Shown: positions 2,347 through 48,870, numbered from the stretch's first letter. The stretch: DNA of 64,000 nucleotides from an uncultured Bacilli bacterium (GCA_947600335.1 CANQGB010000001.1:2443-66442), one strand, 5' to 3'. The notes: a model not told the origin generated them from the sequence alone. Translations and numbers: made by a program.

Positions 2347-2483
2347 AACTACAAATAATTTTGCAAAATATTTTGTAGCTTTTTTAATGTTTTAAAAATG
2401 TAAATTGTTCCAAAACATTATTGACAAGATATCTGTAAAGAGGGTATATTTATTGTAGAAAATCGGGAGAGGAGAAACTCGCA

Positions 2484-5372
2484 ATGAGCAAAAAAGGATT
2501 CACAATAGTAGAATTGTTAGCTACAATAGTAATATTAGCTATTATATCAACGCTTGCTTTTGCAGCCTATAGAAATATTCAAGCAAGGATGAAAGAAACA
2601 GCTTTAAAAAATAAAATTGCCTACATAGAAAATGCTTCTTCAAATTATGCTAATGATACTGGCAACTTGGTTACAATTGTTCAAGTTTTAGTAGATGAAG
2701 GATATATTGAACCAGATGATAATAATGGGGTAGTAAAAAATCCTGTAACAGATGAGGAAATGAATTGTTTAGTTGTCAATATTAGAGAAGATCAAAACAA
2801 TTTATATGGGGAATTAACTGATGTCAAAGAATGTGATATTACTAATCTAGAAATAACTAATCGTAATTTAAATGTCGATGTTTTTGAAAAAGATACTAAT
2901 CGCAAACTAGCAGGTAACGAATGGACAAGTAAAGATGTCTATTTACAAGTAAGTTTTAAAGATAGTAGTATAAATAAGAATAATGTCAAAAAGATAACTT
3001 GGATAAGTAACAGTGGTCGAGAAGAGGTTGCAATCAATAATGATTTTGATAGTCACAATCGGAAAGATGTTACAGCTTCATTAATTATCAATGCCACATA
3101 TAAAGTAGAAATATTAATGAATGATGATGTTAAATATCAAGCCCAAACCAATGTCAAAATAGATAAACAACGACCAGAAATATATGAAGCTGAGAACTAT
3201 ATCGAAAATGAGAATAATTATACCAACAGTGATAAATTAGTCAGAATAACAGCAACCGATTTTAATGGTTCAGGCATCGCGGGATATTACATAGGAACCA
3301 GTAATGATTGTAGAACCGCCCGCTATGAATCAAGCAATAACTCTACATATGAAAAAAGTCTAGATAATGGAACCTATTATGCCTGTGCTAAAGATAAAGT
3401 TGGTAATTTATCCGAAGATATAAGTACCAAACAAATCGTAATTAATCGAGTAGATAAAGTAGTTCCAACCTGTGAATTAATGGCTACTGGAGATATGGGA
3501 AAGAATAATTGGTATGTAAGTAATATAGAAATCGCATTTAAGAGTACAGTAGATAATGAAAGTGGAATCAAAAGTGCTACGATAGATAAGCCTTTAATAA
3601 CCGAAAACACTAATGACATAGTAGTAACGGGAACAGTAGTTGATCAAGCGGGAAATAGCAGTACCTGTAATATAACAGTCAAAAAAGATAGTGATAGACC
3701 AAATTGTGAATTAGAGAAATTAGGAACATTAGGTAAAAATGACTATTATACAAGTGATGTTGATATAAAATTTAAAAGTGCCACAGATAACCTAAGTGGT
3801 GTAGCTAGTCAAAGTTTAAATCGTAATAAAATTACAGAAAACACCAACGGAGTAGATATCACTGGAACTATTGAAGACAATGCGGGTAACCAAAATACCT
3901 GTACAATCAATGTTAAAAAAGATAGTGATAAACCAAGTTGTGAATTAGAGAAATTAGGCACATTAGGCAAAAATGATTACTATACCAGTAATGTTGATAT
4001 AAGATTTAAAAGTGCAACTGATGGAACCAGTGGTGTAGCTAGTCAAAATTTAAATCGCAATAGAGTCACAGAAAACACTAATGGAGTAGATATCACCGGA
4101 ACAATCGAAGACAGAGCCGGAAATCAAAATACCTGTACAATCAATGTTAAAAAAGATAGCGAAAATCCAAGTTGTGAATTAGAAAAAGTGGGAAAATTAG
4201 GCAAAAATGATTACTATACTAGTGATGTTGAAATAAGATTTAAAACTGCCACTGATAACATGAGCGGTGTGGCTAGTCAAATTTTAAGCCAAGCTAGAGT
4301 CACGGAAAATACTAATGGTAAAAATATCACTGGAACTATTGAAGACAATGCCGGTAATAAAAGTACTTGTACAATATATGTCAAAAAAGATAGTGATAGA
4401 CCAAATTGTGAACTAGAAAAAGTAGGAACTTTAGGTAAAAATGATTACTATACCAGTAATGTTGATATAAGATTTAAAACTACAAATGATGGAACTAGTG
4501 GTATAGCTAGTCAAAATTTAAATCGCAATAGTGTTACCGAAAATACCAATGGCGTAACCATCACGGGAACTATTGAAGACAATGCCGGCAACCAAAATAC
4601 TTGTACAACAACTGTTAAAAAAGATACTGATAATCCAAGTTGTGAGCTAGAAAAAGTAGGAAAATTAGGCAACAATGATTATTTTACTAGTGATGTCGAA
4701 ATAAAATTTAAAACTACAAATGATGGTACTAGTGGTATATTAAACCAATATTTAAGTCAAAATAAAATAACCAGCGATACTAATGGTGTAACCATCACGG
4801 GAACCATTGAAGATAAAGCTGGTAATCAAAATACATGTACAACAACTGTTAAAAAAGATGCAACTCCTCCAACAGTCACTTTTAGTGGTGAATCAAATGA
4901 ATGGACCAAAAGTGACCGAGTTATAACACTAAACTGCGATGATCATGGCATTAGTGGATGCGTAGAAAACAGTAGACAAATGACATTTTCATCCAATACT
5001 AAAACAGTAACCCGATGGTTTGAAATAGCAGATAGAGCTGGCAATAAAGTTAGTATTACTCGTGAATTTAACGTGTATGTAGATAAATGCACTTCAACTG
5101 AACCTTCTTATGGTGGTTGGAGTGGCTGTAGTGCTGATTGTGGCGGTGGAACACAAACTCGAACTGTAACACATAATAGTACTTTTGGTAGCGGTTTTGC
5201 TTGTTCCTATGGAACAGACTCTCAAAGTTGCAATACCCAATCTTGTTCAAGCGGTGGCGGTGGCGGCGATAGTGGCCCAGGAAATTGCCGAAACCACTGT
5301 TCAGGAGTTTTATACTCTTGCTATGGAAGCTGTGTATGGGGACATGAAACTTGTGAATGCTGTGATTGTTAA
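2484..5372 (+). CDS. Large pilin-like surface protein: type IV prepilin N-terminus, Ig-like repeats, TSP1-like Cys-rich C-terminus
   Basis: N-terminus MSKKGFTIVELLATIVILAIIS is a class III signal (G/F cleavage site, Glu at +5). Six tandem 80-aa repeats (CELEK..GKNDYYTS..TENTNG..TGTIED.AGN..TC). C-terminus has W-S-G-C-S-A-D-C-G-G-G-T-Q-T-R plus many Cys. SD-like GGGAGAGGAG upstream. Confidence 0.75.
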   Translation: MSKKGFTIVELLATIVILAIISTLAFAAYRNIQARMKETALKNKIAYIENASSNYANDTGNLVTIVQVLVDEGYIEPDDNNGVVKNPVTDEEMNCLVVNIREDQNNLYGELTDVKECDITNLEITNRNLNVDVFEKDTNRKLAGNEWTSKDVYLQVSFKDSSINKNNVKKITWISNSGREEVAINNDFDSHNRKDVTASLIINATYKVEILMNDDVKYQAQTNVKIDKQRPEIYEAENYIENENNYTNSDKLVRITATDFNGSGIAGYYIGTSNDCRTARYESSNNSTYEKSLDNGTYYACAKDKVGNLSEDISTKQIVINRVDKVVPTCELMATGDMGKNNWYVSNIEIAFKSTVDNESGIKSATIDKPLITENTNDIVVTGTVVDQAGNSSTCNITVKKDSDRPNCELEKLGTLGKNDYYTSDVDIKFKSATDNLSGVASQSLNRNKITENTNGVDITGTIEDNAGNQNTCTINVKKDSDKPSCELEKLGTLGKNDYYTSNVDIRFKSATDGTSGVASQNLNRNRVTENTNGVDITGTIEDRAGNQNTCTINVKKDSENPSCELEKVGKLGKNDYYTSDVEIRFKTATDNMSGVASQILSQARVTENTNGKNITGTIEDNAGNKSTCTIYVKKDSDRPNCELEKVGTLGKNDYYTSNVDIRFKTTNDGTSGIASQNLNRNSVTENTNGVTITGTIEDNAGNQNTCTTTVKKDTDNPSCELEKVGKLGNNDYFTSDVEIKFKTTNDGTSGILNQYLSQNKITSDTNGVTITGTIEDKAGNQNTCTTTVKKDATPPTVTFSGESNEWTKSDRVITLNCDDHGISGCVENSRQMTFSSNTKTVTRWFEIADRAGNKVSITREFNVYVDKCTSTEPSYGGWSGCSADCGGGTQTRTVTHNSTFGSGFACSYGTDSQSCNTQSCSSGGGGGDSGPGNCRNHCSGVLYSCYGSCVWGHETCECCDC

Positions 5373-5431
5373 ATTTTAAAAATTTAAAACTTTGATTTAG
5401 AACTAAAAAATATAAAGGGAGGTGCATTCAA

Positions 5432-5932
5432 ATGAAAAAGAATAAAATAATTGTATTAGTTATATTGTTGATATTAATAATCGGGGGAGATATTTTCTTA
5501 GTCAGTCATTTTTCCTCAAAGCCCAATAATCCAGAAAATCCTAATTCTACCCCCACAACTCCCAATGATAATCCAACAACCAAAAAAGTCATTTGTACCA
5601 AAGCCGATACAATTGTTGAGGATACAATGACTTATCAATTAGATAAAAAATATTCATTTTCTGTTAACCAAGATAATAAATTATTTGACTATTTAGATGA
5701 AACAATTTATACCTTTGAAAACATCGAAGATTTTAACTCTTTTTATCAAGATTTAGAAATAACTATTGCTAATATGAAAAATAAAGCTGCCTCCATAACT
5801 AAAAATGAGGCCGACTTAACTATATATTTTTCATTAGTTGAACGTTGGGGCGACTCGGAATATTATAAAGATGGCTATGTTGATTTCTTAGAAGATAGTT
5901 TTGGTTACTCTTGTGAAATTCAAAACGCTTAA
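5432..5932 (+). CDS. hypothetical secreted or membrane-anchored protein
   Basis: N-terminal hydrophobic signal anchor followed by a Pro/Asn/Thr-rich linker. Strong RBS AAGGGAGGTG. Confidence 0.45.
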   Translation: MKKNKIIVLVILLILIIGGDIFLVSHFSSKPNNPENPNSTPTTPNDNPTTKKVICTKADTIVEDTMTYQLDKKYSFSVNQDNKLFDYLDETIYTFENIEDFNSFYQDLEITIANMKNKAASITKNEADLTIYFSLVERWGDSEYYKDGYVDFLEDSFGYSCEIQNA

Positions 5933-7047
5933 ATATCTTTATTAAACGGTTTATTTTGCAATTCATAATCATAAGTATGAGTCTGATTAATTAAATCATA
6001 AACACTTGCAGCCTTTAATTCATATTGATATTGTAAGGAATGAATATTAACTTTTAAACTTATATTCATTTCTTTTTTTATTTTCTTTAAATAAATTTGT
6101 CCTGGTTTATTAAAACCTAAAACTCTTATATAGTCTAACTTAAAATTAGCCATATCTTCTTTTTTAATCCCTAATAAAATGTGAATCAACATCCGATTAA
6201 TTTTATTATAAGTATATCTTTTTGTTTTAATAATTTGTCTTAAATCTTCTAAATTATTTACTTTTTTAATTTCCTTAATTAATCTATTTTCAATGCCTTC
6301 ATCTACTGTTAAATATTGCTTTAAATCATCATCAGTCAATATCTTATATTTTAATAGTTTAAATAAATTTGGATAATCTGGCTTTAACATTTTATCTTGA
6401 ACTAGGGTAGGCACAAATTTAGTAATATCATCACCGCTCATAAAATGCTTTCGTACATTAGAAGCACTAATAATATCTTCCATACTTTCTAAATCATGGT
6501 AATCACTAGTTCTTTTAATAACTGCATAATCTATCTTGAAATTTTCTTTTTTAATAGTTTTAATATATGATATTCCCAACAAATCATTAGGCTTGTTAAA
6601 ATCAAAATCAACATTTATTGCTCTTGCCAAAGCCGTCGGATAATTAACTCCATTTTTTAAATAATCTTTTACTTTTTCATCAAAATTACTATCTAATTCT
6701 TTTAACGCAATTTCTTCTAAAACTTTAACATCGTTACATTCACTCCCAAAAATAATGCGATTTACTTGCAAATGATTTAAAATTGTTAAAGCCCCTTTAG
6801 CAAAAATATCCGCGGCTTGAGAACCAAATATAACTGGTAATTCTACAACTAAGTCGATATCATTATTTAAAGCTATCTTAACTTTATCTTCTTTAGTTAA
6901 AAAACTAATCTCTCCTCGTTCTAAAAAATAACCATTTAAAACTAAGATAATTAATGAATCCGGGTATCTTTTTTTAATTTGGTTAATATGATAAATATGC
7001 CCATTATGAAAAGGATTATATTCACAAATAATACCAATAACTTCCAT
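5929..7047 (-). CDS. tmcAL: tRNA(Met) cytidine acetate ligase, YlbM/TmcAL family nucleotidyltransferase
   Basis: N-terminal CEYNPFHNGHIYH (HxGH nucleotidyltransferase motif). Length about 370 aa, typical of the UPF0348 family. Confidence 0.6.
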   Translation of the reverse strand: MEVIGIICEYNPFHNGHIYHINQIKKRYPDSLIILVLNGYFLERGEISFLTKEDKVKIALNNDIDLVVELPVIFGSQAADIFAKGALTILNHLQVNRIIFGSECNDVKVLEEIALKELDSNFDEKVKDYLKNGVNYPTALARAINVDFDFNKPNDLLGISYIKTIKKENFKIDYAVIKRTSDYHDLESMEDIISASNVRKHFMSGDDITKFVPTLVQDKMLKPDYPNLFKLLKYKILTDDDLKQYLTVDEGIENRLIKEIKKVNNLEDLRQIIKTKRYTYNKINRMLIHILLGIKKEDMANFKLDYIRVLGFNKPGQIYLKKIKKEMNISLKVNIHSLQYQYELKAASVYDLINQTHTYDYELQNKPFNKDI

Positions 7048-7135
7048 AAAATCAACCTCGCCAATAGTTTAACATATTCATTTTAAAAAAACAAAACATT
7101 GTTGTTTATCTTAAACTATTATATAATAAAAATAG

Positions 7136-7630
7136 GTGATAAAGGTGCTTATAGATTTAAGTAAAATAACTCATAATCCCTTATCTATTGATGAAAAGAT
7201 TACTTTGGATAAGGAATTATATCAAAATGCTTCTATATTAGACATAAAAGAAATACATTTAACTGGCGAGATTGTTTATGATTACGAAGACAACTTAGCT
7301 CTTAATTTATTAGCTAAAGGGACATTTATTTTAAAAGATAGCTTAACATTAGAACCTTTAGATTATCCATTTAGTTGTGAAATCGAAGAAATAATTGAAG
7401 GAAATGAATTAAAAAATCCGAAATTTTATGAAAAAAGCAAAAATACTCTTGATATTAGTGAGATTTTATGGGAAAATATTGTTCTAGAGATTCCCATTAG
7501 TGCTACTAATCACACCGTTGAAGAAATTAAATCGTGTGGCGATGGTTGGGAACTATTGAAAGAAAATGATGAAAAAATTGATCCAAGATTAGCTAAGTTA
7601 AAAGAGCTACTTGATGAAGGGAAGGAGTGA
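7136..7630 (+). CDS. yceD: YceD/DUF177 family protein (upstream partner of rpmF)
   Basis: Conserved yceD-rpmF synteny, size and an acidic C-terminus. The true start may be the GTG at 7145, which lies after AGGTGA. Confidence 0.55.
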
Positions 7631-7634
7631 GAAT

Positions 7635-7844
7635 ATGTTTAGATTAGACCTTCAAAGATTTGGTGTTCCATTTAGAAGAACTAGCAAAACTAAAAAAAGA
7701 ATGCGTCGAACTCACTTAAAAAAAGAAGCAGGAGCAATTTTAAAATGCCCTAAGTGTGGAGCAGCTTTAAGACCTCATCGTGCTTGTACAAAGTGTGGTA
7801 ATTATAAAAATAAAGAAGTAATTAAAACTTCTGAAGAAGAATAA
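7635..7844 (+). CDS. rpmF: 50S ribosomal protein L32
   Basis: [27 protein letters not shown] zinc-ribbon L32 signature. RBS GAAGGAG. Terminator hairpin immediately downstream. Confidence 0.85.
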
Positions 7845-7868
7845 TAGCATAAAAGGCTATTTTTTTTA
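7845..7868 (+). terminator. rho-independent terminator after rpmF
   Basis: TAGC-ATAAAAG-GCTA hairpin followed by T8. Confidence 0.6.
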
Positions 7869-7996
7869 TGTAATAACAAATTGGTATAATTTATTTGAAA
7901 AAATATTGTATTAAGAACAAATGTTTGATAGAATTAATTTGGAACATTTAATAGTTGGGTGATTGCCGAACTTCTTAATTGAGGGGAGGTGAGAAG

Positions 7997-8080
7997 ATGT
8001 CAAAAAAAGATTTTCTAATTTCCTTTTTGATTATCATTATCCTTTTACTTATAGCATTACTATTTGTAATCTTAAAATAA
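7997..8080 (+). CDS. 27-aa hydrophobic small peptide (MSKKDFLISFLIIIILLLIALLFVILK)
   Basis: Very strong SD (GAGGGGAGGTGA) 6 nt before the ATG. Single transmembrane helix. Not in the ORF track because it is under 60 aa. Confidence 0.35.
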   Translation: MSKKDFLISFLIIIILLLIALLFVILK

Positions 8081-8200
8081 AAGAAATCACCTAACTCAAC
8101 AATGATTTAGGTGATGCACATTATATGGGCAACACTCAACATGAGAAATTGAATGTTCCATTTTTTATTTTATGCAAGTTTCCTTGACATATTCATCATA

Positions 8201-8230
8201 ACATAAAAACATACCTTTATCAAGTATGTT
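8201..8230 (-). terminator. terminator for the SDR gene (minus strand)
   Basis: AACATAC-N9-GTATGTT hairpin with an A-run on the plus strand, which reads as a T-run on the minus strand. Confidence 0.4.
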
Positions 8231-8286
8231 TTCTTTTAACCATGAATAGGATAAATAGCTTATTATTTGAAAATTATAAATATTTT

Positions 8287-9370: not shown

Positions 9371-10336
9371 TTATTCAAGCGAATTTATAACAAAATTTTC
9401 AACTTTCTCACCATGCGCGACATTAAACTCGACTTTTTCCACATCATACGTATCGCGAATGGACAAAAAAATCGTATACTGAACTTCTTCAATAATTTCA
9501 GAATTATTAATTTCATCTAACAAATACTCATTAAAACTTAACTTAATTTCATTTTCTAAAATTTCATAATTCGTAATCTCAGTACTCGTATGTAAATAAC
9601 TAATTAAATTAGACTCATAAATCGGAGCACTTTTTAATTTTTCAATAATAATTTCCACTTTTTCTTTATCAGTATTAGCAATATAAGTAATTGGAACATA
9701 ATAGAATTTATCATTTTCCTTGGCTCCATAATAAATCGTAGTTTTACTAGTATCTTTCAAACTGGTAATCTCGACAACCTTATTAATTCCAAAATCCTTA
9801 TTCAACACACTTGGGAGTTTTTCTTTACTAAAGGGTAGCTCAATTAATTGTTCACCCTCGATAAAAATTAAAATATTTTTAACTTCCGGTATCTCTGTTA
9901 AAGAATAGATAATCGCCTCGATTAATTTTCGTTCTTTATCTTTATTAGTATTCAAAAAATTTTTCGAAAAATCGAGCTTCAATAAACCGTTTTCTAAACT
10001 CAAATTATTAAGGATCGTCCCACTCGGAATAATTGCATAAAAATTAGTTGGAATATATTCACTTTCATTACTATTGATAGTCAAAATGCTAATTATCTCT
10101 TTAATTCGATTTAAAATGTCTTTATTATCACTAACCATCAAATTAACGCGGGCCACTAATTCCTGTTTATCTAATAAATAAACTGCACTTTCTGCGACAT
10201 CTTCATAACTTAAACTTTGTTTATATTTTTGTTCTGTATTGGCCGTAGGAAAAAAATAAGTAATAATAAAAATAATAAGTGCTAAAGAAGCAATAGCAAT
10301 TCGCCGATAAATACCATTTTTAAGCATAAAATTCAC
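9371..10336 (-). CDS. hypothetical membrane-anchored protein (possibly GerMN-like)
   Basis: N-terminal transmembrane anchor, 321 aa. It lies next to a GerE-type regulator. The domain assignment is a guess. Confidence 0.3.
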   Translation of the reverse strand: MNFMLKNGIYRRIAIASLALIIFIITYFFPTANTEQKYKQSLSYEDVAESAVYLLDKQELVARVNLMVSDNKDILNRIKEIISILTINSNESEYIPTNFYAIIPSGTILNNLSLENGLLKLDFSKNFLNTNKDKERKLIEAIIYSLTEIPEVKNILIFIEGEQLIELPFSKEKLPSVLNKDFGINKVVEITSLKDTSKTTIYYGAKENDKFYYVPITYIANTDKEKVEIIIEKLKSAPIYESNLISYLHTSTEITNYEILENEIKLSFNEYLLDEINNSEIIEEVQYTIFLSIRDTYDVEKVEFNVAHGEKVENFVINSLE

Positions 10337-10708: not shown

Positions 10709-11212
10709 TTAACCTTGAAATTTAACGGTAATATACATTTTTTGGTCAAATTCTTCTTGAATTAAACGAATTATATTATTAGCTAAAGTACTATTATGTT
10801 CCTTACTGGCAATGGTTACGGTAATCTGGTCATTTTTAATTTTAACAAAACTTTCTAAATTATAATTTTCTTTAATTTTCTTTTCTAAACTTTCTTTTTT
10901 ACCTTGCGTCGCATTAATTGTTTGTAAAGAATTATAAGCATCATTTTTTTCTTGTAAACTAGCTGTATCATCTAAAAGAATCGTTTGGAGTTCTTCAATT
11001 TCTTCCAGCATTTCCTCTTCATCTTGAACTCTTAAAGATACTAAAATACTGCTATCTTCAGTTTTAACAACGGAATCTACTTTTTCTTCTTGAACTACGG
11101 AATTAGTTGCAATTTGTAAAATATCATCATCTTTAATCGTTACATAATAAATACTTAAAACTAAAATTAAACTAAATAGTGTCACAAACCATAAACCTTG
11201 TTTATTAATCAT
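10709..11212 (-). CDS. hypothetical membrane-anchored protein
   Basis: N-terminal transmembrane segment and an acidic coiled region. No family recognised. Confidence 0.3.
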   Translation of the reverse strand: MINKQGLWFVTLFSLILVLSIYYVTIKDDDILQIATNSVVQEEKVDSVVKTEDSSILVSLRVQDEEEMLEEIEELQTILLDDTASLQEKNDAYNSLQTINATQGKKESLEKKIKENYNLESFVKIKNDQITVTIASKEHNSTLANNIIRLIQEEFDQKMYITVKFQG

Positions 11213-11310: not shown

Positions 11311-12084
11311 GTGAAGAGTATGAAGTTTAATATATCTTATATTTTTATGGTCTTTTTTATTTATAGTGTTCTGGGGTTTATTTCTGAAACTATTTTTACA
11401 AGTATTAAAAACAAAAAATTTGTCAATCGGGGTTTTTTATTTGGACCTTATTGTCCCGTGTATGGTTTTGGTAGTCTTTTTATTATCTATTGTTTATCTC
11501 GTTATGAAAATGACCCCATTGTGGTCTTTATCTTAGGTTCGGTGATTACTTCTTGTTTAGAGTATTTTACGAGTTTTATTTTAGAAAAAATCTTTCATAA
11601 TAAGTGGTGGGATTATTCCGATTATAAATACAATGTTAATGGCCGAATTTGTTTACAAAATACCATTTTATTTGGTCTAGGTAGTTTAGTTATCATTTAT
11701 TTAGGAGACCCTTTAATTTTTAAATTTTTAAATAGATTATCTAATTTTAGTTTAAATTTAAATGCTTTAATTTATGGTTTTATTTTTATTGTCGATACGA
11801 TTTATTCTTTCATTATTGCCTATAACTTAAGAAATAAATTAATTTTCTGTGAAGAATTGAAGAAAGAAAAATTAGCTCATTTACCTGGTATGTTAGAAAA
11901 AATTATGAAAGAACGTTTAAGCAATTTAAAAACTTATCCTAAACGTTTACTAGAAGCTTTCCCTAATTTAAAGAATAACAACTTTAAAGAGTTTGAAATC
12001 ATGAAAGCGATTCGTGAAAAAAATATCTTAGAAAAGAAAAAACAGAAAAAAAATAAAGCAAAGAAGAAAAAAGTTAACAAATAA
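11311..12084 (+). CDS. polytopic membrane protein with a Lys-rich C-terminus (possibly CmpB/PF06541-like)
   Basis: Multiple transmembrane helices and a KKKQKKNKAKKKK tail. The family assignment is tentative. Confidence 0.3.
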   Translation: MKSMKFNISYIFMVFFIYSVLGFISETIFTSIKNKKFVNRGFLFGPYCPVYGFGSLFIIYCLSRYENDPIVVFILGSVITSCLEYFTSFILEKIFHNKWWDYSDYKYNVNGRICLQNTILFGLGSLVIIYLGDPLIFKFLNRLSNFSLNLNALIYGFIFIVDTIYSFIIAYNLRNKLIFCEELKKEKLAHLPGMLEKIMKERLSNLKTYPKRLLEAFPNLKNNNFKEFEIMKAIREKNILEKKKQKKNKAKKKKVNK

Positions 12085-12151
12085 GTTAATTTTTTTTTAA
12101 TTTAAAAGGAAATTTCAAATTTTCATTGTAAATATATAGTAGGAGGTGAAA

Positions 12152-14224
12152 ATGAGAAAAGAATTAATTATAATTCAACAAGACCTAAAAGATTGTGGTG
12201 TATGCTGTTTACAATCGATTATAAAATATTATCATGGCTATGTACCATTAGAAAAAATCCGTATCGATACGGCTACGTCTATGGAGGGGACAAATGCATA
12301 TCAATTAATCAAAGCCGCTAAAAGTTATGGATTTAATTCGCTTGGTAAAAGATTACCTAGTATCAACGATATTAATGATGAATTAATATATCCTTGCATT
12401 GCTCATATTGCTACTAAAAAATATAGCCATTTTGTTGTTATTTATAAGAGTACTAAAGATAGCTTAATTTTAATGGACCCAGCTAAAGGTAAAGTCGTTC
12501 AAAAAAAAGTTGATTTTATGAAAACGTGGACTAATGTCATTATCGAACTTTATCCTCAAAATAAAATTTTAAATATTAAAACGCAAAATTTCATTCCCTT
12601 ATTTTCTAAAAAACTTATTTCGCAAAATAAAAACATATTTTTCAAAATTTTCCTATATAAAATATTCCTTATTTTCTTTAGTTTAGTCTTAAGTTTTCAT
12701 TTTAAAATTAATCTTAGTCTTTTTAATAATCAAGCTATCAAAACTTTTATTATGATATCAACATATTTTATTTTAGGTTATTTTTTCAAAGTAGTTTTTA
12801 ATTACTTCGAGAATTATCAAAAAAATCTTTTGGAAAAAAAGATAGATACTGAAGTTTACCATGATTTTTTATCGCACTTATTTTTACTTCCGGATAGTTT
12901 TATTAAAAATCGGACCTCGGGGGAGATTATGACTAGAGTAGAGGAGTTAAGTAGTATTAAAGAATTTTATTCGAATATTTTCTTATCTTTAGTCCTCGAA
13001 AGTATTTTATTAATCATTTGTAGTATTGTTCTTTTTCATATTAATTTAACTTTATTTTTAACTTTAGGTTTATTTCTAGTTATTTATATTTTGATTGGAA
13101 CAATCTACAGCCGCCGGTTATTTAAAAAAATTATCCAAAATATAGAAGCTACTTCTATATTCAATGCTAAGGTTTTAGAAAATTTAGATGTTTATACGAC
13201 CTTAAAAAATTTAGGTGTCTTAAAGGCAGCTAATCAAGAATTAAATTATATAACTAACTGTTATCTTAAAAATAACTATCAATTAAACGAGTACTTTTTA
13301 AACTTTAATACTTTCTGTGATTTTTTAGAACAGTTGCTTAACTATTTTATTATTACTTTTGGTTTCATTTTAATTTACCAAAATAAATTAAGTATTGTCG
13401 ATTTATATACGTTTCTAATTTTAATTTTTTACCCCATTAATTATATAAAAAATCTTATTATCATAATCCCTAAATATACTTATATTAAAGCAATTATTCA
13501 TAAAATCAACGATTATTTTGATATCCCAATCGCACAAGAAGAAAATAGTACTGAGTTTTCTTATGGGGATATTCGAATAACAAATTTAACTTATTGCCTC
13601 AATTATCAAGAATATATATTTCAAAATTTAAACTTAGTTATTTTAAAAAACAGTCATGTTATGTTAAAAGGTTCATCAGGATGTGGCAAATCAACCCTTT
13701 GTAAATTAATAACTAGGTCCATCACAGATGAGTATATGCCCATAACTATCGATGGCCATTTAATCAACACTTTGACCCAAAAATCTCTAGAACAAAACAT
13801 TACTTACGTCGGTCAAAGAGAAAATTTAATTCAAGATACGATTAAGAATAATATTTTATTCTATCGCCAAATATCCGAAGAAAAGTTAAACCAAATTATT
13901 TCACTATGTGCTTTAGATGAACTAATTAAGAAAAAGCCTTTAGGTTTAGAAACTTTTCTCTTTAAAGACAGTTCTAATTTATCGGGTGGTGAAAAACAAA
14001 GAATAATCTTAGCCCGAGCCTTATTAAATGATTTTAAAATTTTAATCTTAGATGAGGCTTTAAGCGAACTAAATGAAGATTTAGAAATTGGAATAATAAA
14101 AAATTTAAGAAAAAATTATCCTGATAAAACTATCATTTATGTTACGCATAAAAATCATGATGAGTATTTTGACGATGTCATTGATTTAAGCAAAAAAAAG
14201 GAGGTTATTAATGATTTTATCTAA
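12152..14224 (+). CDS. bacteriocin-processing ABC transporter with N-terminal C39 peptidase domain (ATP-binding/permease)
   Basis: N-terminal LKDCGVCCLQSII (C39 catalytic Cys). Transmembrane domain. Walker A GSSGCGKST, ABC signature LSGGEKQRI, Walker B ILILDEA. RBS AGGAGGTGA. Confidence 0.85.
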   Translation: MRKELIIIQQDLKDCGVCCLQSIIKYYHGYVPLEKIRIDTATSMEGTNAYQLIKAAKSYGFNSLGKRLPSINDINDELIYPCIAHIATKKYSHFVVIYKSTKDSLILMDPAKGKVVQKKVDFMKTWTNVIIELYPQNKILNIKTQNFIPLFSKKLISQNKNIFFKIFLYKIFLIFFSLVLSFHFKINLSLFNNQAIKTFIMISTYFILGYFFKVVFNYFENYQKNLLEKKIDTEVYHDFLSHLFLLPDSFIKNRTSGEIMTRVEELSSIKEFYSNIFLSLVLESILLIICSIVLFHINLTLFLTLGLFLVIYILIGTIYSRRLFKKIIQNIEATSIFNAKVLENLDVYTTLKNLGVLKAANQELNYITNCYLKNNYQLNEYFLNFNTFCDFLEQLLNYFIITFGFILIYQNKLSIVDLYTFLILIFYPINYIKNLIIIIPKYTYIKAIIHKINDYFDIPIAQEENSTEFSYGDIRITNLTYCLNYQEYIFQNLNLVILKNSHVMLKGSSGCGKSTLCKLITRSITDEYMPITIDGHLINTLTQKSLEQNITYVGQRENLIQDTIKNNILFYRQISEEKLNQIISLCALDELIKKKPLGLETFLFKDSSNLSGGEKQRIILARALLNDFKILILDEALSELNEDLEIGIIKNLRKNYPDKTIIYVTHKNHDEYFDDVIDLSKKKEVINDFI

Positions 14225-14339
14225 TGAAGAACTACAAACAATATCTGGTGGAAGTTTAAAAGAAGCTTTTATAGTAGGCGTTGGTTCTGTTATCAGTTTT
14301 TTTGTAGGCGTTTTCGAAAGTTTTTTTGCTAGATGCTAG
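14211..14339 (+). CDS. double-glycine leader bacteriocin precursor peptide A (42 aa)
   Basis: MILSNEELQTISGG leader (LSxxELxxIxGG consensus) followed by a hydrophobic Gly-rich 28-aa core. GGAGG RBS 7 nt upstream. Overlaps the last codons of the transporter gene. Confidence 0.7.
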   Translation: MILSNEELQTISGGSLKEAFIVGVGSVISFFVGVFESFFARC

Positions 14340-14359
14340 TTAGAAAGGAGTAAATTAAA

Positions 14360-14512
14360 ATGTATTTAACAAATCAAGAATTAACTAAAATTAATGGTGG
14401 AGCTTTGTCTTCAACGATTAATTCCATGACTAAAATTTTTTCCTTTTTTTATGATTTAGGTAAGTCTGTAGGTAATACCATTAGAAATTTATTTGGAAAA
14501 AATTATTGTTAA
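14360..14512 (+). CDS. double-glycine leader bacteriocin precursor peptide B (50 aa)
   Basis: MYLTNQELTKINGG leader followed by a 36-aa amphipathic core ending in C. RBS AAAGGAG upstream. Confidence 0.7.
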   Translation: MYLTNQELTKINGGALSSTINSMTKIFSFFYDLGKSVGNTIRNLFGKNYC

Positions 14513-14560
14513 AATATCTGAGGTATTATATAATTAATACATACTAAGGAGGGATATATA

Positions 14561-15298
14561 ATGAAGCAAAAATCTCAAGGTTTTATTGCAATTTCATTAA
14601 TATATTCCTTTTTTTTAGTGTTTTTAATGACTATCTCAGCGATTATTGTTGATTATGCTCATAATCGCATCTTAGTTAATGAAGTATTAAAAGACACCCA
14701 AAATTATTTAAATAGCTTAGCCGAAAATGATCAAACTAAACTTCCTCGTAAAGATTATACTTTAAGAGAAAACGTTAATTATGCAGGTTTAACTTGGCAA
14801 GTAATTGGCACTAATGGCAATGATGTCACTTTAGTTTTAAATCGGGCATTAAATAATGCAGAAATAACTGCCGCTATTAATCATATGCATTATGAACTAA
14901 CTCACAATAATGAATACGTTAAAATGTGTAGTAATATTTATACAACTTATTATTGTTTTTATACGAGTAATACCTCTTATAAAGCTTATAATTATGATAA
15001 TAGTTTAATAAAAGCTTTAGTCAATGCTTGGTTTGATACTAATAGTTCTTTACAAGAAGCTTTAACTCACTATTCTTTAACTGCCATGACTGTTGCAGTT
15101 AACGGTACCTCATCTAGTGACTATGTTCGTATTATGAATCGCGATGAAGCTAGTATTATCGGTGATAATAATACCTGGACCTATACTTACTCTCGCTTAG
15201 CAAGTGGAATTAGTTATACTAAAAATGCTAGTAATGCTGATGTTAGTACCGTAGCTGAACAAACCGTAAGACCTGTAATTACAGTCAAAAAGAATTAA
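14561..15298 (+). CDS. hypothetical membrane-anchored protein (possible bacteriocin immunity or accessory protein)
   Basis: N-terminal transmembrane helix. Position immediately after the bacteriocin peptides. RBS AAGGAGGG. Confidence 0.3.
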   Translation: MKQKSQGFIAISLIYSFFLVFLMTISAIIVDYAHNRILVNEVLKDTQNYLNSLAENDQTKLPRKDYTLRENVNYAGLTWQVIGTNGNDVTLVLNRALNNAEITAAINHMHYELTHNNEYVKMCSNIYTTYYCFYTSNTSYKAYNYDNSLIKALVNAWFDTNSSLQEALTHYSLTAMTVAVNGTSSSDYVRIMNRDEASIIGDNNTWTYTYSRLASGISYTKNASNADVSTVAEQTVRPVITVKKN

Positions 15299-21220: not shown

Positions 21221-21658
21221 GTGAATAATATGGCTATATATATAATGAAAAGACAAACCATAAAACTAAAAGTCAACAAACTAAAACCCACTCCAGTTTA
21301 CACATTAAAACCTAATATTAAAAATGCCCAAATGGTTAAAATTAAAAGTTTAAACATTGCGAGTCCTAAATGTGCCGATATCTTAATTGCTAAAAAATTA
21401 GACAAAGATTTTCGCAAAATTATGGCTATTTATTTACAAGCTATCGATAGTGATGATAGTGGTAATATTGCCATTGCCTTAAATGAAATTACGCGCTTAA
21501 AAGAAATCATCATGCTAAAATATCAAGAAAACATGAGTAAAGAATTACTATCTAAGTATTTAAAAAGATTAGCTTTATTTGAAAAAAATCTCCAAGAAAA
21601 ACAAAGAATGTTAACCTATGCCGAAGAAATATTGTGGAATAAACCGAAAAGTCGTTAA
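21221..21658 (+). CDS. hypothetical protein between trmD and rplS
   Basis: Intact ORF of 145 aa. No recognisable motif. Confidence 0.35.
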   Translation: MNNMAIYIMKRQTIKLKVNKLKPTPVYTLKPNIKNAQMVKIKSLNIASPKCADILIAKKLDKDFRKIMAIYLQAIDSDDSGNIAIALNEITRLKEIIMLKYQENMSKELLSKYLKRLALFEKNLQEKQRMLTYAEEILWNKPKSR

Positions 21659-37423: not shown

Positions 37424-38353
37424 ATGAAAAGATTTATAACTGCCAAATTGATTGAATGGAAAAATAGCCAAGATAGGAAAAATCTCATTTTAAAAGGAAC
37501 AAGGCAAGTAGGGAAAACTTATATTTTACAAGAATTTGGTAAAAATAATTATGATAAAGAAATACCTAAATTATTTGAATCTATGCTTATCGAAAAATTA
37601 AAGGCTTACTATATTGTTGAAGGTATGTCTGAAGGTGTTTATAGTTGGGTTAATAATAAGGATATAGAAAAAGTTAATAAACTTCAACAAAACATTTTAG
37701 ATACTTATGAAGCTGATTTTTCTAAGCATGTGGATACAAATGAAGCCAATAAAATATCGTTAATCTGGAATGGAATACCTTCCCAATTAGCTAGAGAAAA
37801 TAAAAAATTCGTTTATCAATTAGTTAAAGAAGGAGCTCGAGCTCGAGAATATGAAAATGCTCTAAACTGGTTAAAAGATAGTAACTTAATTTCTAAATGT
37901 TTTTTAGTTAATAAATGTGCTTTCCCTTTAAAAGCTTATAATGATTTATCAGCCTATAAAATATATATGCTAGATGTTGGACTTCTAAGAAAGATGGCTA
38001 ATTTAGATAGTAGCATTATTTTAGAAAGCAATAAATTATTTGAAGAGTTTAAGGGTTCTTTTACTGAAAATTACGTAGTAAATGTTTTAAATTATTTATT
38101 TAATTCTTCGCCAAATTATTATACATTTGATCGAAATGAAATTGATTTTGTTATTCAAATAAAAAATAAAATTATCCCTATTGAAATAAAGTCTAATAAA
38201 AGCACTAACCACAATAGTTTAACTAAATATAATGCTAATAATGACAATGAGTTATCATTTAGATTTTCTTTAAACAATTTGAGTAAAGATGGAAAAATTA
38301 TAAATATCCCATTGTATTTCATTGAATATATTTGTAATCTTAATATTTATTAA
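37424..38353 (+). CDS. AAA_14/DUF4143-family ATPase paralog, apparently internally deleted (Walker A retained, Walker B region missing)
   Basis: GTRQVGKTY Walker A is followed directly by the DUF4143-like C-terminal part. Full-length paralogs lie at 44212 and 58832. Confidence 0.45.
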   Translation: MKRFITAKLIEWKNSQDRKNLILKGTRQVGKTYILQEFGKNNYDKEIPKLFESMLIEKLKAYYIVEGMSEGVYSWVNNKDIEKVNKLQQNILDTYEADFSKHVDTNEANKISLIWNGIPSQLARENKKFVYQLVKEGARAREYENALNWLKDSNLISKCFLVNKCAFPLKAYNDLSAYKIYMLDVGLLRKMANLDSSIILESNKLFEEFKGSFTENYVVNVLNYLFNSSPNYYTFDRNEIDFVIQIKNKIIPIEIKSNKSTNHNSLTKYNANNDNELSFRFSLNNLSKDGKIINIPLYFIEYICNLNIY

Positions 38354-38564: not shown

Positions 38565-40124
38565 ATGTTAAGTCGGAAAATGTTTGAACGCATCAATTGG
38601 TATAAAAAAGAATATATTCATGATTATTATTCGCGAATCATCATAGATTTTAAGGACTATGAAAAAATATCTCGTACCAAAATGCTTGAAGAAGTATATA
38701 AGGTTTATGATAACCCGGAAAATATTTTAGATATATGTACTTTCAAAGAATTAAAGTACTTACAAATGATAATTGAAAACTCCAAACCAATGCCTGAATT
38801 GTTAGACTCTAAATATGATTGGGAAAGAGATATGCTTCATAAAAAATTTTTAATTCAAGATGATTTTAAGGTTGTGTTTATTCCTGATGAAATAATAGAT
38901 CAAGTAAAGAAAGCTTTAGCCATAGTTGATTGGTCTAAAGTCAAAAAAGCAGACGAAATAAATGAAATAGCGGTTAGCTATTGCAAAATGTTAGGTTCAA
39001 CTATATTTTATCAAGTATGCACCATTACCTCTAGTATTACTGGAATTAATGACGAAGAAGTCTTTAATCATTTAAATCATAATCGGCTTTTTAAATTTTA
39101 TGTATATGTCTATAATAAAGATTTCCAACATCTAAATCAAACTCTGCCTGTTGCTTTATATAATGATTATTATACTATCGGTAATGAAATTGAAACTGAA
39201 AGAAAAAAGCAAGGCATTAAAGCGGTGCCTTCTCTTGATGTAGAATTTTTAAAGAGATATTTTTATAATGACTTTGATATAAAAAATCCTAAAATTGCTA
39301 AATTTATCAAAGAAATAAAAAAGCTTCCTATATTATGGCACGATGCTTTGCGTATTGTTAGAGAATATGCCATCTTAAATATCGATAGAACTCCCTTAAA
39401 ACAATCTTTTAAAGATGTACCTAGTTTACAAAAACATAATTTAACTTCTTTTTTTCATACTTTAGATGAAGCTATGGATGAAATGCCATCAGGTGCTTTA
39501 AATGGCTTAACACCTAACCAAGCTAAAAATTATCGAATGGAACAAGAACAAATAAAGCATGACAAAGAACAAAACTATATTAAACAACAAAATGCTTGCT
39601 TATCGAAAAAAGATGCCGACTTATTTTATAAAATCTATTTTGCTTTATTAGAATTTACAAATAAAAAATTTCAAATTAAAAAAGATTTAAAAATATATCA
39701 ACAAAATCACCTTAATCCTCATGATTTAACTAATATTATTGCAAAATTTTGGGAAAATAAAGAAACTTTAACCCAAGAATTTTGTCAAACTAATCCTTAT
39801 AAATTTAATTCTGAAGAATTAGATATTACCTCAAATTTTCAAAAAGGTTTCAGAGGACATTTTATCGTTGTCAAATTTGAAGAAGAATATACTGCTGTAA
39901 TGGATAAAGATAAAACTTATATGATTAAAGGGATAAACGATAATATTGATAACATTCTTTCGTATCAAAACCTCCCTGTAGTTGTTACAACATCTATTAT
40001 TCCTTTTAAAAATTTTTTAATCTATGATGGAATTTTTTACGAATTTAGTATAAGTCTCGGTTCTAATTTTACTAATATGATTAACCAAGATTTTCAAAAA
40101 TCTTTAAAATATTATCATCTTTAA
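38565..40124 (+). CDS. hypothetical 519-aa protein, no recognisable domain
   Basis: Intact ORF, immediately upstream of and co-oriented with the helicase gene. Confidence 0.4.
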   Translation: MLSRKMFERINWYKKEYIHDYYSRIIIDFKDYEKISRTKMLEEVYKVYDNPENILDICTFKELKYLQMIIENSKPMPELLDSKYDWERDMLHKKFLIQDDFKVVFIPDEIIDQVKKALAIVDWSKVKKADEINEIAVSYCKMLGSTIFYQVCTITSSITGINDEEVFNHLNHNRLFKFYVYVYNKDFQHLNQTLPVALYNDYYTIGNEIETERKKQGIKAVPSLDVEFLKRYFYNDFDIKNPKIAKFIKEIKKLPILWHDALRIVREYAILNIDRTPLKQSFKDVPSLQKHNLTSFFHTLDEAMDEMPSGALNGLTPNQAKNYRMEQEQIKHDKEQNYIKQQNACLSKKDADLFYKIYFALLEFTNKKFQIKKDLKIYQQNHLNPHDLTNIIAKFWENKETLTQEFCQTNPYKFNSEELDITSNFQKGFRGHFIVVKFEEEYTAVMDKDKTYMIKGINDNIDNILSYQNLPVVVTTSIIPFKNFLIYDGIFYEFSISLGSNFTNMINQDFQKSLKYYHL

Positions 40125-44026: not shown

Positions 44027-44211
44027 ATATACGCAATTGGTTTATTTAACTGAAATTTTAATTCCACGTCAAAAAGAATAGAGTGATTTCTCTAAAAAGT
44101 CTCGGGTTGATTTGTTAAAATCTCACGGAATGATTTTTCAAAATTACACGGTTTTTACTTGACATTTCTTTAGAACATAATATAAACTTATAATAAGTGA
44201 GGGATAAAACT

Positions 44212-45489
44212 ATGGAAATACAAAATTATCGAAAAAGAATTGTTGATGCTAAAATTGAAGAATACCTCAAAATGTTTGGGGCGGTTTGTATTGAAGGACC
44301 TAAATATTGTGGCAAAACTTGGGCTGGTAGATTTCACGCTAATAGTGAAACATTACTTCATAACAATACCGGTGAGGGTTCTAATAATATCGAAATTGCC
44401 AAAATATCTCCTAATATCATTTTAGAAGGAGCTAAGCCTAAATTAATTGATGAATGGCAAGAAGCGACTAATCTTTGGGATGAAATAAGAAACAATATTG
44501 ATAAAAGTGGTTTAAAAGGCCAATATATTTTAACCGGTTCATCAACTCCCAAAAGGGATGGAATCTCTCATAGTGGTGCCGGTCGCTTTGGTAAAATTCA
44601 TTTACGGCCCATGTCATTATACGAATCTGGTGATTCCACAGGAGTTGTTTCATTGCAAGATATATGTAACAACCAAGAAATCGCTAAATCAACGGGTGAA
44701 GTGGACTTAAAAGAATTAGCTCGCCTAATTATTCGTGGTGGTTGGCCTGGAAACTTAGAATTTTCTTCATCAGAAGCTAAAAAAGCCTTAAATGAATATA
44801 TTGACTTAATAATTAACGATGATTTATATCGCTTAGATGGCATCAACCGCGATAAACATAAAATGAAATTACTTTTAAAATCTTTAGCCCGCAACGAAAG
44901 CACAACTGTTACCAATACTACTTTAAAGCGAGATATTAATGAAAAAGACAATGAGGATATTGATATTGATACCTTAGCATCCTACTTAAATGCTCTTGAC
45001 AAGTTATTTTTACTAGACAATGATGAACCTTTTTCGACTAATATTCGTTCTTCCATCCGAGTTAAACAATCTGAAAAGCGCCATTTTGCCGACCCATCAA
45101 TTGCTTGTGCCTTATTAAACTTATCTGAAGAAAAATTGATCAACGATTTAGAAACCTTTGGCTTTTTATTCGAAGCTATGGTGGAAAGAGACTTAAAAAT
45201 ATACGCTGATTCTTTTGATGCTAAAACCTATCATTATCAAGATTACTTAAATAGAGAAATAGACCAAGTAATTGAACTGGAAGATGGAACTTGGTGTGCC
45301 TTTGAAATCAAATTAGGTGTCAATGCCATTGACCAAGCCGCCAGTAATCTTATCAAAATTCGTGATTCCATTAAAGAAAACAATGGCAATTATCCTAAAG
45401 TATTATGTGTCATCTGTGGTTTAGCCAATGCTGCTTATAAAAGAGCTGATGGAGTTTATGTTGTACCTATTACCGCTTTAAAAAATTAA
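44212..45489 (+). CDS. AAA_14/DUF4143-family ATPase
   Basis: Walker A GPKYCGKTW, DEWQ Walker B-like box, C-terminal DUF4143-type region. RBS GAGGGA. Confidence 0.55.
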   Translation: MEIQNYRKRIVDAKIEEYLKMFGAVCIEGPKYCGKTWAGRFHANSETLLHNNTGEGSNNIEIAKISPNIILEGAKPKLIDEWQEATNLWDEIRNNIDKSGLKGQYILTGSSTPKRDGISHSGAGRFGKIHLRPMSLYESGDSTGVVSLQDICNNQEIAKSTGEVDLKELARLIIRGGWPGNLEFSSSEAKKALNEYIDLIINDDLYRLDGINRDKHKMKLLLKSLARNESTTVTNTTLKRDINEKDNEDIDIDTLASYLNALDKLFLLDNDEPFSTNIRSSIRVKQSEKRHFADPSIACALLNLSEEKLINDLETFGFLFEAMVERDLKIYADSFDAKTYHYQDYLNREIDQVIELEDGTWCAFEIKLGVNAIDQAASNLIKIRDSIKENNGNYPKVLCVICGLANAAYKRADGVYVVPITALKN

Positions 45490-48405: not shown

Positions 48406-48870
48406 GTGAAAAATAAAAATAATAAACCCAAATTATGTCTAGTATCTAGTAGTGGTGGGCACTGGGAACAATTACAAAAATTGCAACCATTAATAGATAA
48501 ATATTCTGGATTCAAAGTTACAGAAAAAACCAACTTTGAAGCAAATGCTAATTATTTTATGATACAAACTGATATGAAAGATAAATTAATGCCTTTAAAA
48601 ATGTTGTGGAACAGTTTTTATACGTTAATTATATGGATAAAAGAAAGACCAGATTTTATTATTACCACTGGCACAATGGTTGCTTATCCATTTTATTTGT
48701 TATCTATAATATTTAGGAAAAAATTTATTTTTATTGAAACATTTGGTAGAGCAAATATGCCAACAATAGCTGGTAAAAAAATGGAAAAACATAGTGATTT
48801 ATTTATAGTCCAATGGGAAAGTCAAAAAAAATATTATAAAAAGGCTATATATGGAGGTTGTTTATATTGA
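48406..48870 (+). CDS. Alg14-like glycosyltransferase accessory subunit (Cps14F/PssD-like)
   Basis: KLCLVSSSGGHWEQL N-terminus. About 150 aa with transmembrane segments. Paired with the Alg13-like gene. Confidence 0.65.
   Translation: MKNKNNKPKLCLVSSSGGHWEQLQKLQPLIDKYSGFKVTEKTNFEANANYFMIQTDMKDKLMPLKMLWNSFYTLIIWIKERPDFIITTGTMVAYPFYLLSIIFRKKFIFIETFGRANMPTIAGKKMEKHSDLFIVQWESQKKYYKKAIYGGCLY

Follow-up and report, generated by a model that had tools for sequence, protein, structure and literature searches.

Modular pilins, defined by an N-terminal IPR012902/N_methyl module joined to at least one domain that is not confined to type IV pilus biology, number more than 1,200 proteins in 264 architectures, the largest of 860 amino acids (aa), and are proposed to polymerise by means of this N-terminal module and probably to sit at the tip of the filament, as in the vWA adhesin PilB of Streptococcus sanguinis (Raynaud et al. 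2021, PMC8179133). They are the current explanation for the functional diversity of simple type IV filaments, and those characterised carry one extra module and are encoded in pilus operons. Here we describe a 962-aa protein encoded in a 64,000-nucleotide stretch of DNA from an uncultured Bacilli bacterium (GCA_947600335.1, CANQGB010000001.1:2443-66442; "the window" below means this whole stretch), which is probably a modular pilin presented on a pilus as an adhesin and served by a tip-specific partner. The system is a variant of known modular pilins, not a new kind of system; what is new is the combination of a fixed carrier, a variable stalk, swappable tips, among them one with a thrombospondin type 1 (TSP1) domain, and a partner that is anchored in the membrane and co-varies with the tip.

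PilB (vWA) and PilC (lectin) of S. sanguinis (PMC8179133; Shahin et al. 2023, PMC9934059) resemble the window pilin in that i) the host is monoderm; ii) a class III pilin module is joined to effector modules; and iii) presentation at the tip for adhesion is predicted, and vWA is found in some relatives of the window pilin as well. Where PilB and PilC each have one extra module, the window pilin carries about 11; two Fn3/Ig modules are a fixed part of its carrier, and its tip is made of TSP1 and a Cys knob. Its gene lies outside a pilus operon, and it has a co-varying partner gene such as has not been described for PilB or PilC. CofB of enterotoxigenic Escherichia coli and TcpB of Vibrio cholerae (type IVb) likewise combine a pilin module with beta-rich domains on a linker and are located at the tip, where CofB is an adaptor for the separately encoded partner CofJ (as summarised in PMC8179133). 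They differ from the window pilin in their diderm hosts, their place inside the pilus operon, their length (~350-520 aa), and the absence of a repeat stalk, TSP1, Cys knob, or tip/partner swapping, and no sequence similarity of the window pilin to either was seen beyond alpha1.

The first ~125 residues are a genuine type IV pilin module, on three independent lines of evidence: the motif kept by its large relatives (see below), a sequence profile, and a structure model. A 5-residue basic leader, MSKKG, ending in Gly-1, is followed by FTIVELLATIVILAIISTLAFAA with Phe+1, Glu+5, and ~21 hydrophobic residues, and this N-terminus is recognised by both Pfam N_methyl (PF07963; 22.5 bits against a cutoff of 21.2) and NCBIfam TIGR02532 (24.3 bits against 16.3). 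A profile of the first ~130 residues of 14 family members (A5) matches 21 solved type IV pilins over positions 2-58, and nothing else significantly; it aligns Phe6 with residue 1 of the mature solved pilins, and scores best with geopilin 9egp (E = 1.5e-9, 57 residues) and S. sanguinis PilE1 (8.9e-8), followed by Myxococcus PilA, MshA, Thermus PilA4/5, PpdD, the PAK and GC pilins, and GspG. The AlphaFold2 (AF2) model of residues 1-329 (mean pLDDT 88.9 from an 11-sequence alignment) has a pilin-type head in which a 52-residue helix (8-59) packs on a beta-sheet with strands 63-65, 96-103, and 106-115, and then two beta-sandwiches. Because the Fn3/Ig modules swamped the matches when this model was searched with Foldseek, the head was assessed instead by the sequence profile, built from the head only. 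The canonical class III prepilin signal (G/F site, Glu+5) claimed in the sequence-only reading is thus upheld, since motif, N_methyl, TIGR02532, and family conservation agree. No second open reading frame (ORF) with an N-terminal class III motif is found in the six frames of the window, and the C-terminus (...GHETCECCDC) has no LPXTG, hydrophobic tail, or other wall anchor; since LPXTG and hydrophobic tail are both missing there, the protein does not belong with the sortase-anchored pilins and microbial surface components recognizing adhesive matrix molecules (MSCRAMMs). With N_methyl, TSP_1, and HYR/Ig-like modules, and with Fn3/BIg-like folds at residues 126-329, it falls within the definition of a modular pilin given above.

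The stalk begins with two beta-sandwiches (residues 126-329) whose best Foldseek matches are the Fn3 domain of C. thermocellum CbhA, the BIg domains of SiiE, titin Fn3 tandems, and adhesin extender repeats. Each of the six 78-aa repeats that follow has a conserved Cys pair spaced 65 residues apart; Tandem Repeats Finder (TRF) reports a period of 234 (5.0 copies, 82% matches), and repeats 2-6 are 64-87% identical in amino acid and 71-86% in nucleotide sequence. The repeats reach a summed HYR score of 40.6 bits in Pfam and resemble Big_13/OmpL47-type modules of unrelated proteins, and from sequence we infer an Ig-like fold for all six. The divergent module after them resembles the "WTNxxRxIxLxCxDxxSGC...DxAGN...VYVDK" modules of the related proteins P0007, P0013, and P0016. 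A tandem Ig-like rod projecting a distal binding region is also the design of SiiE and of the ice-binding and "large adhesion protein" extenders; these giant adhesins differ in being type I secretion substrates or anchored to the wall or outer membrane, in having many more repeats, and in having no class III signal.

At the distal end a TSP1 domain, a Gly linker, and a knob of 29 residues with 8 Cys make up the tip, and the same layout recurs at the related loci L007, L011, and L012. Pfam TSP_1 matches residues 878-921 (25.2 bits against a cutoff of 21.6), the CSxxCGxGxxxR core and Cys framework are present (GWSGCSADCGGGTQTRT...C...C...C), and phmmer gives a weak direct match of the region to the human thrombospondin-1 repeats in the PDB (E = 0.006); a single Trp (YGGWSGC) stands where a WxxW(xxW) ladder is expected. 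Core and Cys pattern are shared with thrombospondin-1, F-spondin, and apicomplexan TRAP, the TSP_1 and TSP1_spondin models both match, and TRAP-type adhesins are also like the window family in combining TSP1 or vWA modules with a stalk. The window domain differs from its eukaryotic counterparts in its bacterial host, its one Trp in place of the WxxW ladder, its fusion to a pilin, and the Cys knob after it; no literature linking TSP1 domains to pilins was found. The "more than 800 aa of Ig-like repeats" of the sequence-only reading were therefore right in substance, and resolve into two Fn3/Ig-like modules, six 78-aa repeats, and a divergent module; its "Cys-rich tail" is real, and consists of the TSP1 domain, Gly linker, and 8-Cys knob. 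Pilin signal, repeats, and Cys tail were all recognised there, and what it overlooked was the TSP1 domain, the apparently co-transcribed partner, and the polymorphic organisation of tip and partner.

A full-length search returned 58 first matches, recovering the identical P0001 and a family of large relatives. The motif G-[FY]-T-x-x-E stands at the N-terminus of 33 of the 58, essentially all those sharing more than Ig repeats; the actinobacterial and other matches have only the repeat in common and bear Sec-type signals. Exhaustive phmmer searching of 1.84 billion representatives with residues 1-135 retrieved 1,786 proteins at E <= 1e-3, of which 322 reach E <= 1e-10, matched always at the extreme N-terminus. 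The class III motif is present in 144 of the best 150 head-module relatives, whose median length is 621 aa and 104 of which reach 400 aa or more; as the matches are N-terminal, motif-bearing, and mostly in large proteins, the head is a dedicated carrier for large pilins. Family members differ hardly or not at all in Gly-1, Phe+1, Thr+2, and Glu+5, and essentially all low-GC relatives keep the class III signal, not the ordinary Sec signal that would have told against the sequence-only reading. Of 69 members surveyed with Pfam, 68 have N_methyl, ~11 have TSP1 families (best E = 3.4e-14), and 2 have vWA; Listeria-Bacteroides repeats and Ig/Fn3 domains also occur. Neither Pfam nor NCBIfam detected a toxin domain in the window protein, nor did Pfam in the 69 relatives, and the idea that the tips are toxin domains is without support from either database.

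Among GTDB species representatives, alignment of head and modules identified 23 loci, the best 47% identical, so that the window genome is not itself one of the representatives. All 23 come from metagenome-assembled genomes (MAGs), with GC contents of 26-34%, of uncultured "Bacilli" or "Tenericutes" of the rabbit, mouse, and human gut; a study of reduced-genome gut lineages (PMC12306168) deals with other taxa. The family, with at least 322 clusters at 50% identity, is so far known only from metagenomes, in uncultured small-genome gut Bacilli. Three metagenome contigs in ENA match window positions 5092-8261 with 100% identity and are broken off within the pilin repeats. Support for a phage origin is lacking, as tblastn of the pilin module against 50,697 phage records gave no match.

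In nearly all loci a membrane-anchored ORF lies directly 3' of the giant pilin gene, and in the window the two genes form a self-contained unit with the layout of an operon. The alpha/beta domain of the window partner has a conserved Cys55...Gly-Tyr-x-Cys161-Glu. Word-seeded database searches with the partner found 1 cluster from the single sequence and 4 clusters from a profile, and its structure model is only moderate because there are too few sequences for a deep alignment; a comparison with YehR/DUF1307-like membrane-tethered proteins, by fold and sequence family, is tentative. Treating long (~420 aa) and short (~160 aa) partners as one family was rejected, as hhalign aligns the membrane anchor only; the long class has no relatives in the PDB. 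The partner classes are unrelated in fold, and conserved in position and topology. An Asp or Glu lies within the predicted membrane anchor of 8 of 13 short partners (e.g. IIGGDIFLV; A3 alignment), a buried acidic residue that recalls Glu+5 of pilins and might make an intramembrane contact with alpha1N or the machinery.

The carrier is the same throughout the family, while a change of distal tip goes with a change of the partner encoded downstream. Up to about residue 480 the window protein is collinear with P0002 and closely resembles it; the two then part exactly at a "VKKD-x-x-P" module boundary, P0002 having two repeats (against six in the window protein) and another Cys-rich tip. We compared normalised alignment scores for the N-terminal 320 aa, the tip, and the partner over 25 cassettes. 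Window and L001 score 0.88 for the N-terminus, 0.06 for the tip, and 0.11 for the partner; L006 and L007, which come from the same MAG, score 0.86-0.87, 0.07-0.09, and 0.06-0.08; and in the L019/L020/L021 group all three parts are alike (0.71-0.97, 0.79-0.90, and 0.64-0.96). The window partner is closest to the partners of cassettes with TSP1 tips, at L007 (two cassettes) and L011 (N-terminus 0.40-0.47, tip 0.25-0.40, partner 0.15-0.23), and the cassette whose N-terminus is closest to that of the window does not have the closest partner. With the N-terminus controlled for, tip and partner show a partial rank correlation of 0.33, a value reached by none of 2000 label permutations; L012_6233, with a TSP1 tip yet a dissimilar partner, is an exception. 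Tips in the family are of three types: Cys-rich ending in CPxGG...CYY, TSP1 with Cys knob, and Gly/Ala-rich hydrophobic tails.

The last type belongs to a "GFTIPELL" subfamily, whose giant pilins end in a 40-50-residue, Gly/Ala-rich, glycine-zipper-like hydrophobic segment (e.g. ...GGPVGWVLAGAAAAGVALGAALCASN) and have partners of the long (~420 aa) class. Its loci are L019:9893-11686 and 12921-14819, L020/L021:12920-14791, L023:152-2122, L024:9902-11695, L026:1552-3246, L027:9905-11857, and L002:14059-16560. By its sequence the tail could anchor the C-terminus in the membrane or act as a peptide that inserts into membranes, either of which would be odd in a pilus subunit.

Searches for pilus machinery covered the window, as the only part of its genome, and ~0.58 Mb of related loci; the ATPase search combined a Walker A regular expression with tblastn of one PilT sequence. 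The statement in the sequence-only reading that the window has no pilus machinery held up: no T2SSE-type Walker A occurs in any frame of the window (regular expression), and T2SSF, PilD, and PilT-type ATPase have no tblastn match there. In four related genomes (L019, L020, L021, L024), a T2SSF/PilC-like gene directly followed by a true prepilin peptidase gene lies 3-12 kb upstream of the giant pilins, in the order rpoD-trmK-pilC-pilD-spoIVA-...-pilin. The T2SSF protein of these relatives matches PF00482 (165.9 bits), GspF (268), and PilC (221), with ComGB at 159 below its cutoff of 240; the peptidase matches A24_N_bact (113 bits) and Peptidase_A24. Of the machinery that the sequence-only reading placed elsewhere in the genome, the related loci thus provide the prepilin peptidase and a PilC-type platform, not the assembly ATPase; and of its "type IV pilus or competence system" the type IV pilin stands, while a competence pilus is the less likely since the platform of the relatives is PilC/GspF-like rather than ComGB-like. 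Small ordinary N_methyl pilins adjoin giant ones in L022, L027, and L032.

The L019 platform (L019:4591-6510; also L024:2285-3850) is 639 aa long and has a ~230-residue N/Q/S-rich low-complexity N-terminal extension. Its gene and pilD lie between trmK and spoIVA, with no adjacent pilB-type ATPase gene.

We envisage the following sequence of events. Sec would insert the pilin with alpha1N as membrane anchor, and a prepilin peptidase encoded elsewhere would cut off MSKKG and methylate Phe1. A PilC/PilD-type filament machine, like that near the genes of the relatives, would take up the pilin module; given the bulk of the protein, the most probable place is the tip of the filament, or else it would be a subunit used rarely. 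Ig and Fn3 domains usually measure 3.5-4 nm each, and at this length ~nine beta-sandwich modules would give a stalk of ~35-40 nm, which would project the TSP1 and Cys-knob tip past the cell wall, where the tip would bind a ligand and the protein act as an adhesin. On the outer side of the membrane, before the filament is assembled, each tip would be bound by its own partner, for which the likeliest role is that of a tip-specific holdase or docking factor. That an adhesin would stand at the pilus tip is suggested by the architecture and by the example of S. sanguinis PilB and PilC, and the adhesion-type modules found across the family (TSP1, vWA, Listeria-Bacteroides repeats, Ig/Fn3) support an adhesin.

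Against this interpretation it must be said that the assembly ATPase (T2SSE/PilB) was not found in the window or the ~0.58 Mb of related loci, a weak negative given a single PilT sequence as tblastn probe and a search of the source genome within the window only; that in the loci examined the giant pilin genes stand alone among housekeeping genes, none being embedded in a pilus operon; that the co-variation of tip and partner suits an effector/immunity pair equally well; that TSP_1 in the window protein scores only just above threshold; that ligand binding by the tip is a prediction only; and that passage or spanning of a Gram-positive wall by a 962-aa subunit is presumed.

The co-variation leads directly to another reading, the main rival though tentative and less likely, in which the pilin module is a trafficking domain that displays a variable C-terminal effector (a toxin, either membrane-active or rich in Cys, or a determinant of kin recognition) on a type IV filament and the downstream protein is the cognate immunity protein or receptor, by analogy with CdiA-CT/CdiI, Rhs, and LXG systems. 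Polymorphic toxins of these kinds (CdiA-CT/CdiI, Rhs, LXG/WXG; Zhang et al. 2012, PMC3482391) are built like the window family: the N-terminal region used for trafficking is conserved, the stalk is repetitive, the C-terminal tip varies and is swapped at a set boundary, and the cognate gene lies directly downstream. The window family differs in having no recognisable toxin, a pilin as carrier, and a partner that is membrane-anchored and extracytoplasmic, and orphan arrays were not seen in it. Constant N-termini with unrelated tips and co-varying downstream genes even in one genome (L006 and L007), the break between window protein and P0002 exactly at a module boundary after ~480 collinear residues, partner classes that differ in fold yet agree in position and topology, the possibility of several cassettes per genome, and a subfamily ending in glycine-zipper-like segments of the kind found in membrane-active peptides would all suit such a cassette. 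The catalogue of trafficking domains in polymorphic toxins does not list pilins (PMC3482391 contains neither "pilin" nor "pilus"), so the module might, at a similarly modest level of credence, be an unrecognised trafficking domain of a polymorphic pilus-displayed system whose filaments mediate strain-specific antagonism or kin recognition, not simple adhesion; equally tentatively, each cassette would then pair a swappable tip (TSP1 and Cys knob, CPxGG...CYY, or glycine-zipper) with a cognate membrane-anchored immunity protein or receptor. What holds us back is that neither the window protein nor 69 relatives have a toxin domain, the recognisable tips being of adhesion type (TSP1, vWA, Ig); that arrays of orphan tip/immunity cassettes were not seen; and that L012_6233 combines a TSP1 tip with a dissimilar partner. 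The site of the partner beneath the wall suits action in cis, and as immunity and chaperone roles fit it alike it does not discriminate.

Unlikely, and more so than a polymorphic cassette, is a surface protein that is anchored through its pilin part and never enters a polymer, its class III signal serving for PilD processing and alpha1N anchoring and its ~35-40 nm stalk for crossing the wall, as in archaeal binding proteins with class III signals or a one-subunit pseudopilus stub. The scatter of the genes among housekeeping genes outside pilus operons, the failure to find an ATPase in any locus examined, and a stalk which, judged from domain counts, would be long enough for a Gram-positive wall are in keeping with it; filament assembly is indicated instead by strict conservation of Glu+5, whose established role is in subunit-subunit contacts, and of the whole pilin head, by the PilC-type platform gene, needed only for assembly, beside pilD near the genes of relatives, and by the small candidate major pilins encoded beside some giant ones. 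That the protein is a minor pilin of a competence (Com) pseudopilus for DNA uptake we consider improbable: Bacilli commonly have ComG pili, and ComGC and ComGE models match the N-terminus weakly, but ComGC, ComGD, and ComGE reach only 16-23 bits against cutoffs of 49-75 and on alpha1 only (ComGC 16.6 against 75, ComGE 17.1 against 49), the platform of the relatives scores 268 and 221 with GspF and PilC and 159, under the cutoff of 240, with ComGB, a comG operon context was seen in none of the loci, and the tip modules are of adhesion type rather than DNA-binding. Hardly credible is an ordinary Sec signal or anchor that merely resembles a prepilin signal, on a conventional Ig-repeat surface adhesin; N_methyl is only ~1 bit over the Pfam cutoff in the window protein, and actinobacterial relatives of the Ig-like repeats bear Sec-type signals, but the near-invariant Gly-1, Phe+1, Thr+2, and Glu+5, the motif in 144/150 and N_methyl in 68/69 relatives, the match of profile A5 to solved pilins over 57 residues (E = 1.5e-9), the 52-residue alpha1 packed on a beta-sheet in the AF2 model, and a C-terminus without LPXTG or other wall-anchor signal all speak for a pilin.

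The family consists of a fixed carrier (head and two Fn3 modules), stalks of variable length, and interchangeable tips each with its own partner. This raises the hypotheses that tip and partner bind each other, that tips set specificity for host, mucus, or microbe in bacteria that do not grow in pure culture, and that a eukaryote-type TSP1 domain works on a bacterial pilus. On the preferred reading the protein is a modular adhesin that a pilus presents and a tip-specific partner serves; were the partner to act in immunity or recognition instead, type IV filaments would join the delivery routes of polymorphic effector systems.

Table 1. Features of the modular pilin locus (positions in the window; residues of the encoded protein in brackets)
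Feature	Position	Strand	Basis or remarks
Promoter-like site TTGACA-18-TATATT	2421..2450	+	11/12 sigma-70-like match; ~35 nt 5' of pilin ATG
Ribosome-binding site GGGAGAGGAGA (GGAGAGGAG)	2466..2476	+	Read from sequence; 8 nt 5' of pilin ATG
Gene for modular type IV pilin	2484..5372, incl. stop codon	+	962 aa; identical protein on record is P0001 (NCBI)
Class III leader MSKKG (aa 1-5)	2484..2498	+	Predicted prepilin peptidase cleavage after Gly5
N_methyl/alpha1N segment (aa 2-26)	2487..2561	+	PF07963, TIGR02532; Phe+1 and Glu+5
Pilin module (aa 1-125)	2484..2858	+	alpha1 8-59, small beta-sheet, conserved Cys95/Cys117 pair in head
Two Fn3/Ig-like beta-sandwich modules (aa 126-228, 229-329)	2859..3470	+	AF2, Foldseek; conserved carrier part across family
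Six tandem 78-aa repeats (aa 330-797)	3471..4874	+	TRF, sequence; presumed Ig-like stalk
Divergent, probably beta-sandwich-type module (aa 798-868; Cys818/Cys826)	4875..5087	+	Sequence similarity
TSP1 domain (aa 869 to ~921)	5088..5249	+	Pfam TSP_1
Gly-rich linker (aa ~922-933) and terminal 8-Cys knob (aa 934-962, ...CRNHCSGVLYSCYGSCVWGHETCECCDC)	5250..5369	+	Sequence
Partner gene, 166 aa	5432..5932	+	N-terminal membrane anchor aa 3-28, Pro/Asn-rich linker, ~115-aa extracytoplasmic alpha/beta domain

The pilin gene starts at the first ATG past a stop codon. Promoter-like sites are no more than slightly in excess in the region (23 observed against 21 expected), and the site listed in Table 1 is a consensus match only; its position and the quality of the match are suggestive of a promoter.

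The neighbouring genes in the window are miaB, an AI-2E transporter gene, tmcAL, and yceD, then genes for GerM, a SpoIIIAH-like protein, and a C39-ABC exporter; all those scanned belong to housekeeping, sporulation, or polysaccharide synthesis. The GerM-like and SpoIIIAH-like ORFs lie at 9371-10336 (-) and 10709-11212 (-), and SpoIVA is encoded in relatives at L019:7792-9267 and L027:7720-9195. Because sporulation and germination genes occur in these low-GC MAGs, some of them labelled "Tenericutes", the lineage appears to be a walled spore-former; the Gram-positive host supposed in the sequence-only reading is borne out as a walled, spore-forming member of the Bacillota, with GerM and SpoIIIAH in the window and SpoIVA, penicillin-binding proteins, and Mur ligases in relatives.

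A gene for a CmpB-like membrane protein and one for a 692-aa C39-peptidase ABC exporter follow at 11311-14224 (+). Such exporters process double-glycine leader peptides in bacteriocin or quorum peptide export. The Gly linker before the knob was considered as a double-glycine site for this exporter, and the idea was dropped for mismatched topology, because C39 domains cut N-terminal leaders in the cytoplasm and the pilin C-terminus is exported by Sec.

Two Alg14-like plus Alg13/Glyco_tran_28_C-like gene pairs (48406-49364 and 60318-61300, +) stand ~12 kb apart within two apparent polysaccharide-synthesis clusters, with TupA-like ATP-grasp and PGA_cap genes after the second pair. Similar generic Walker A motifs (G-x4-GK[ST]), not of T2SSE type, occur at 37496, 44296, and 58904 (+), in three ORFs scattered over the polysaccharide region (37424-38353, 44197-45489, and 58832-60046) that may encode paralogous P-loop ATPases. 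Four further window ORFs (38565-40124, 49960-51243, 14561-15298, and 21221-21658, +; 519, 427, 245, and 145 aa) match no Pfam family at E <= 1e-3, and the same is true of a 705-aa ORF (L024:6569-8686) that lies between spoIVA and a giant pilin gene. Finally, one of the three otherwise identical ENA contigs (L029:2448) is without 87 bp (window 7539-7627), a strain-level indel at the end of yceD, before rpmF.

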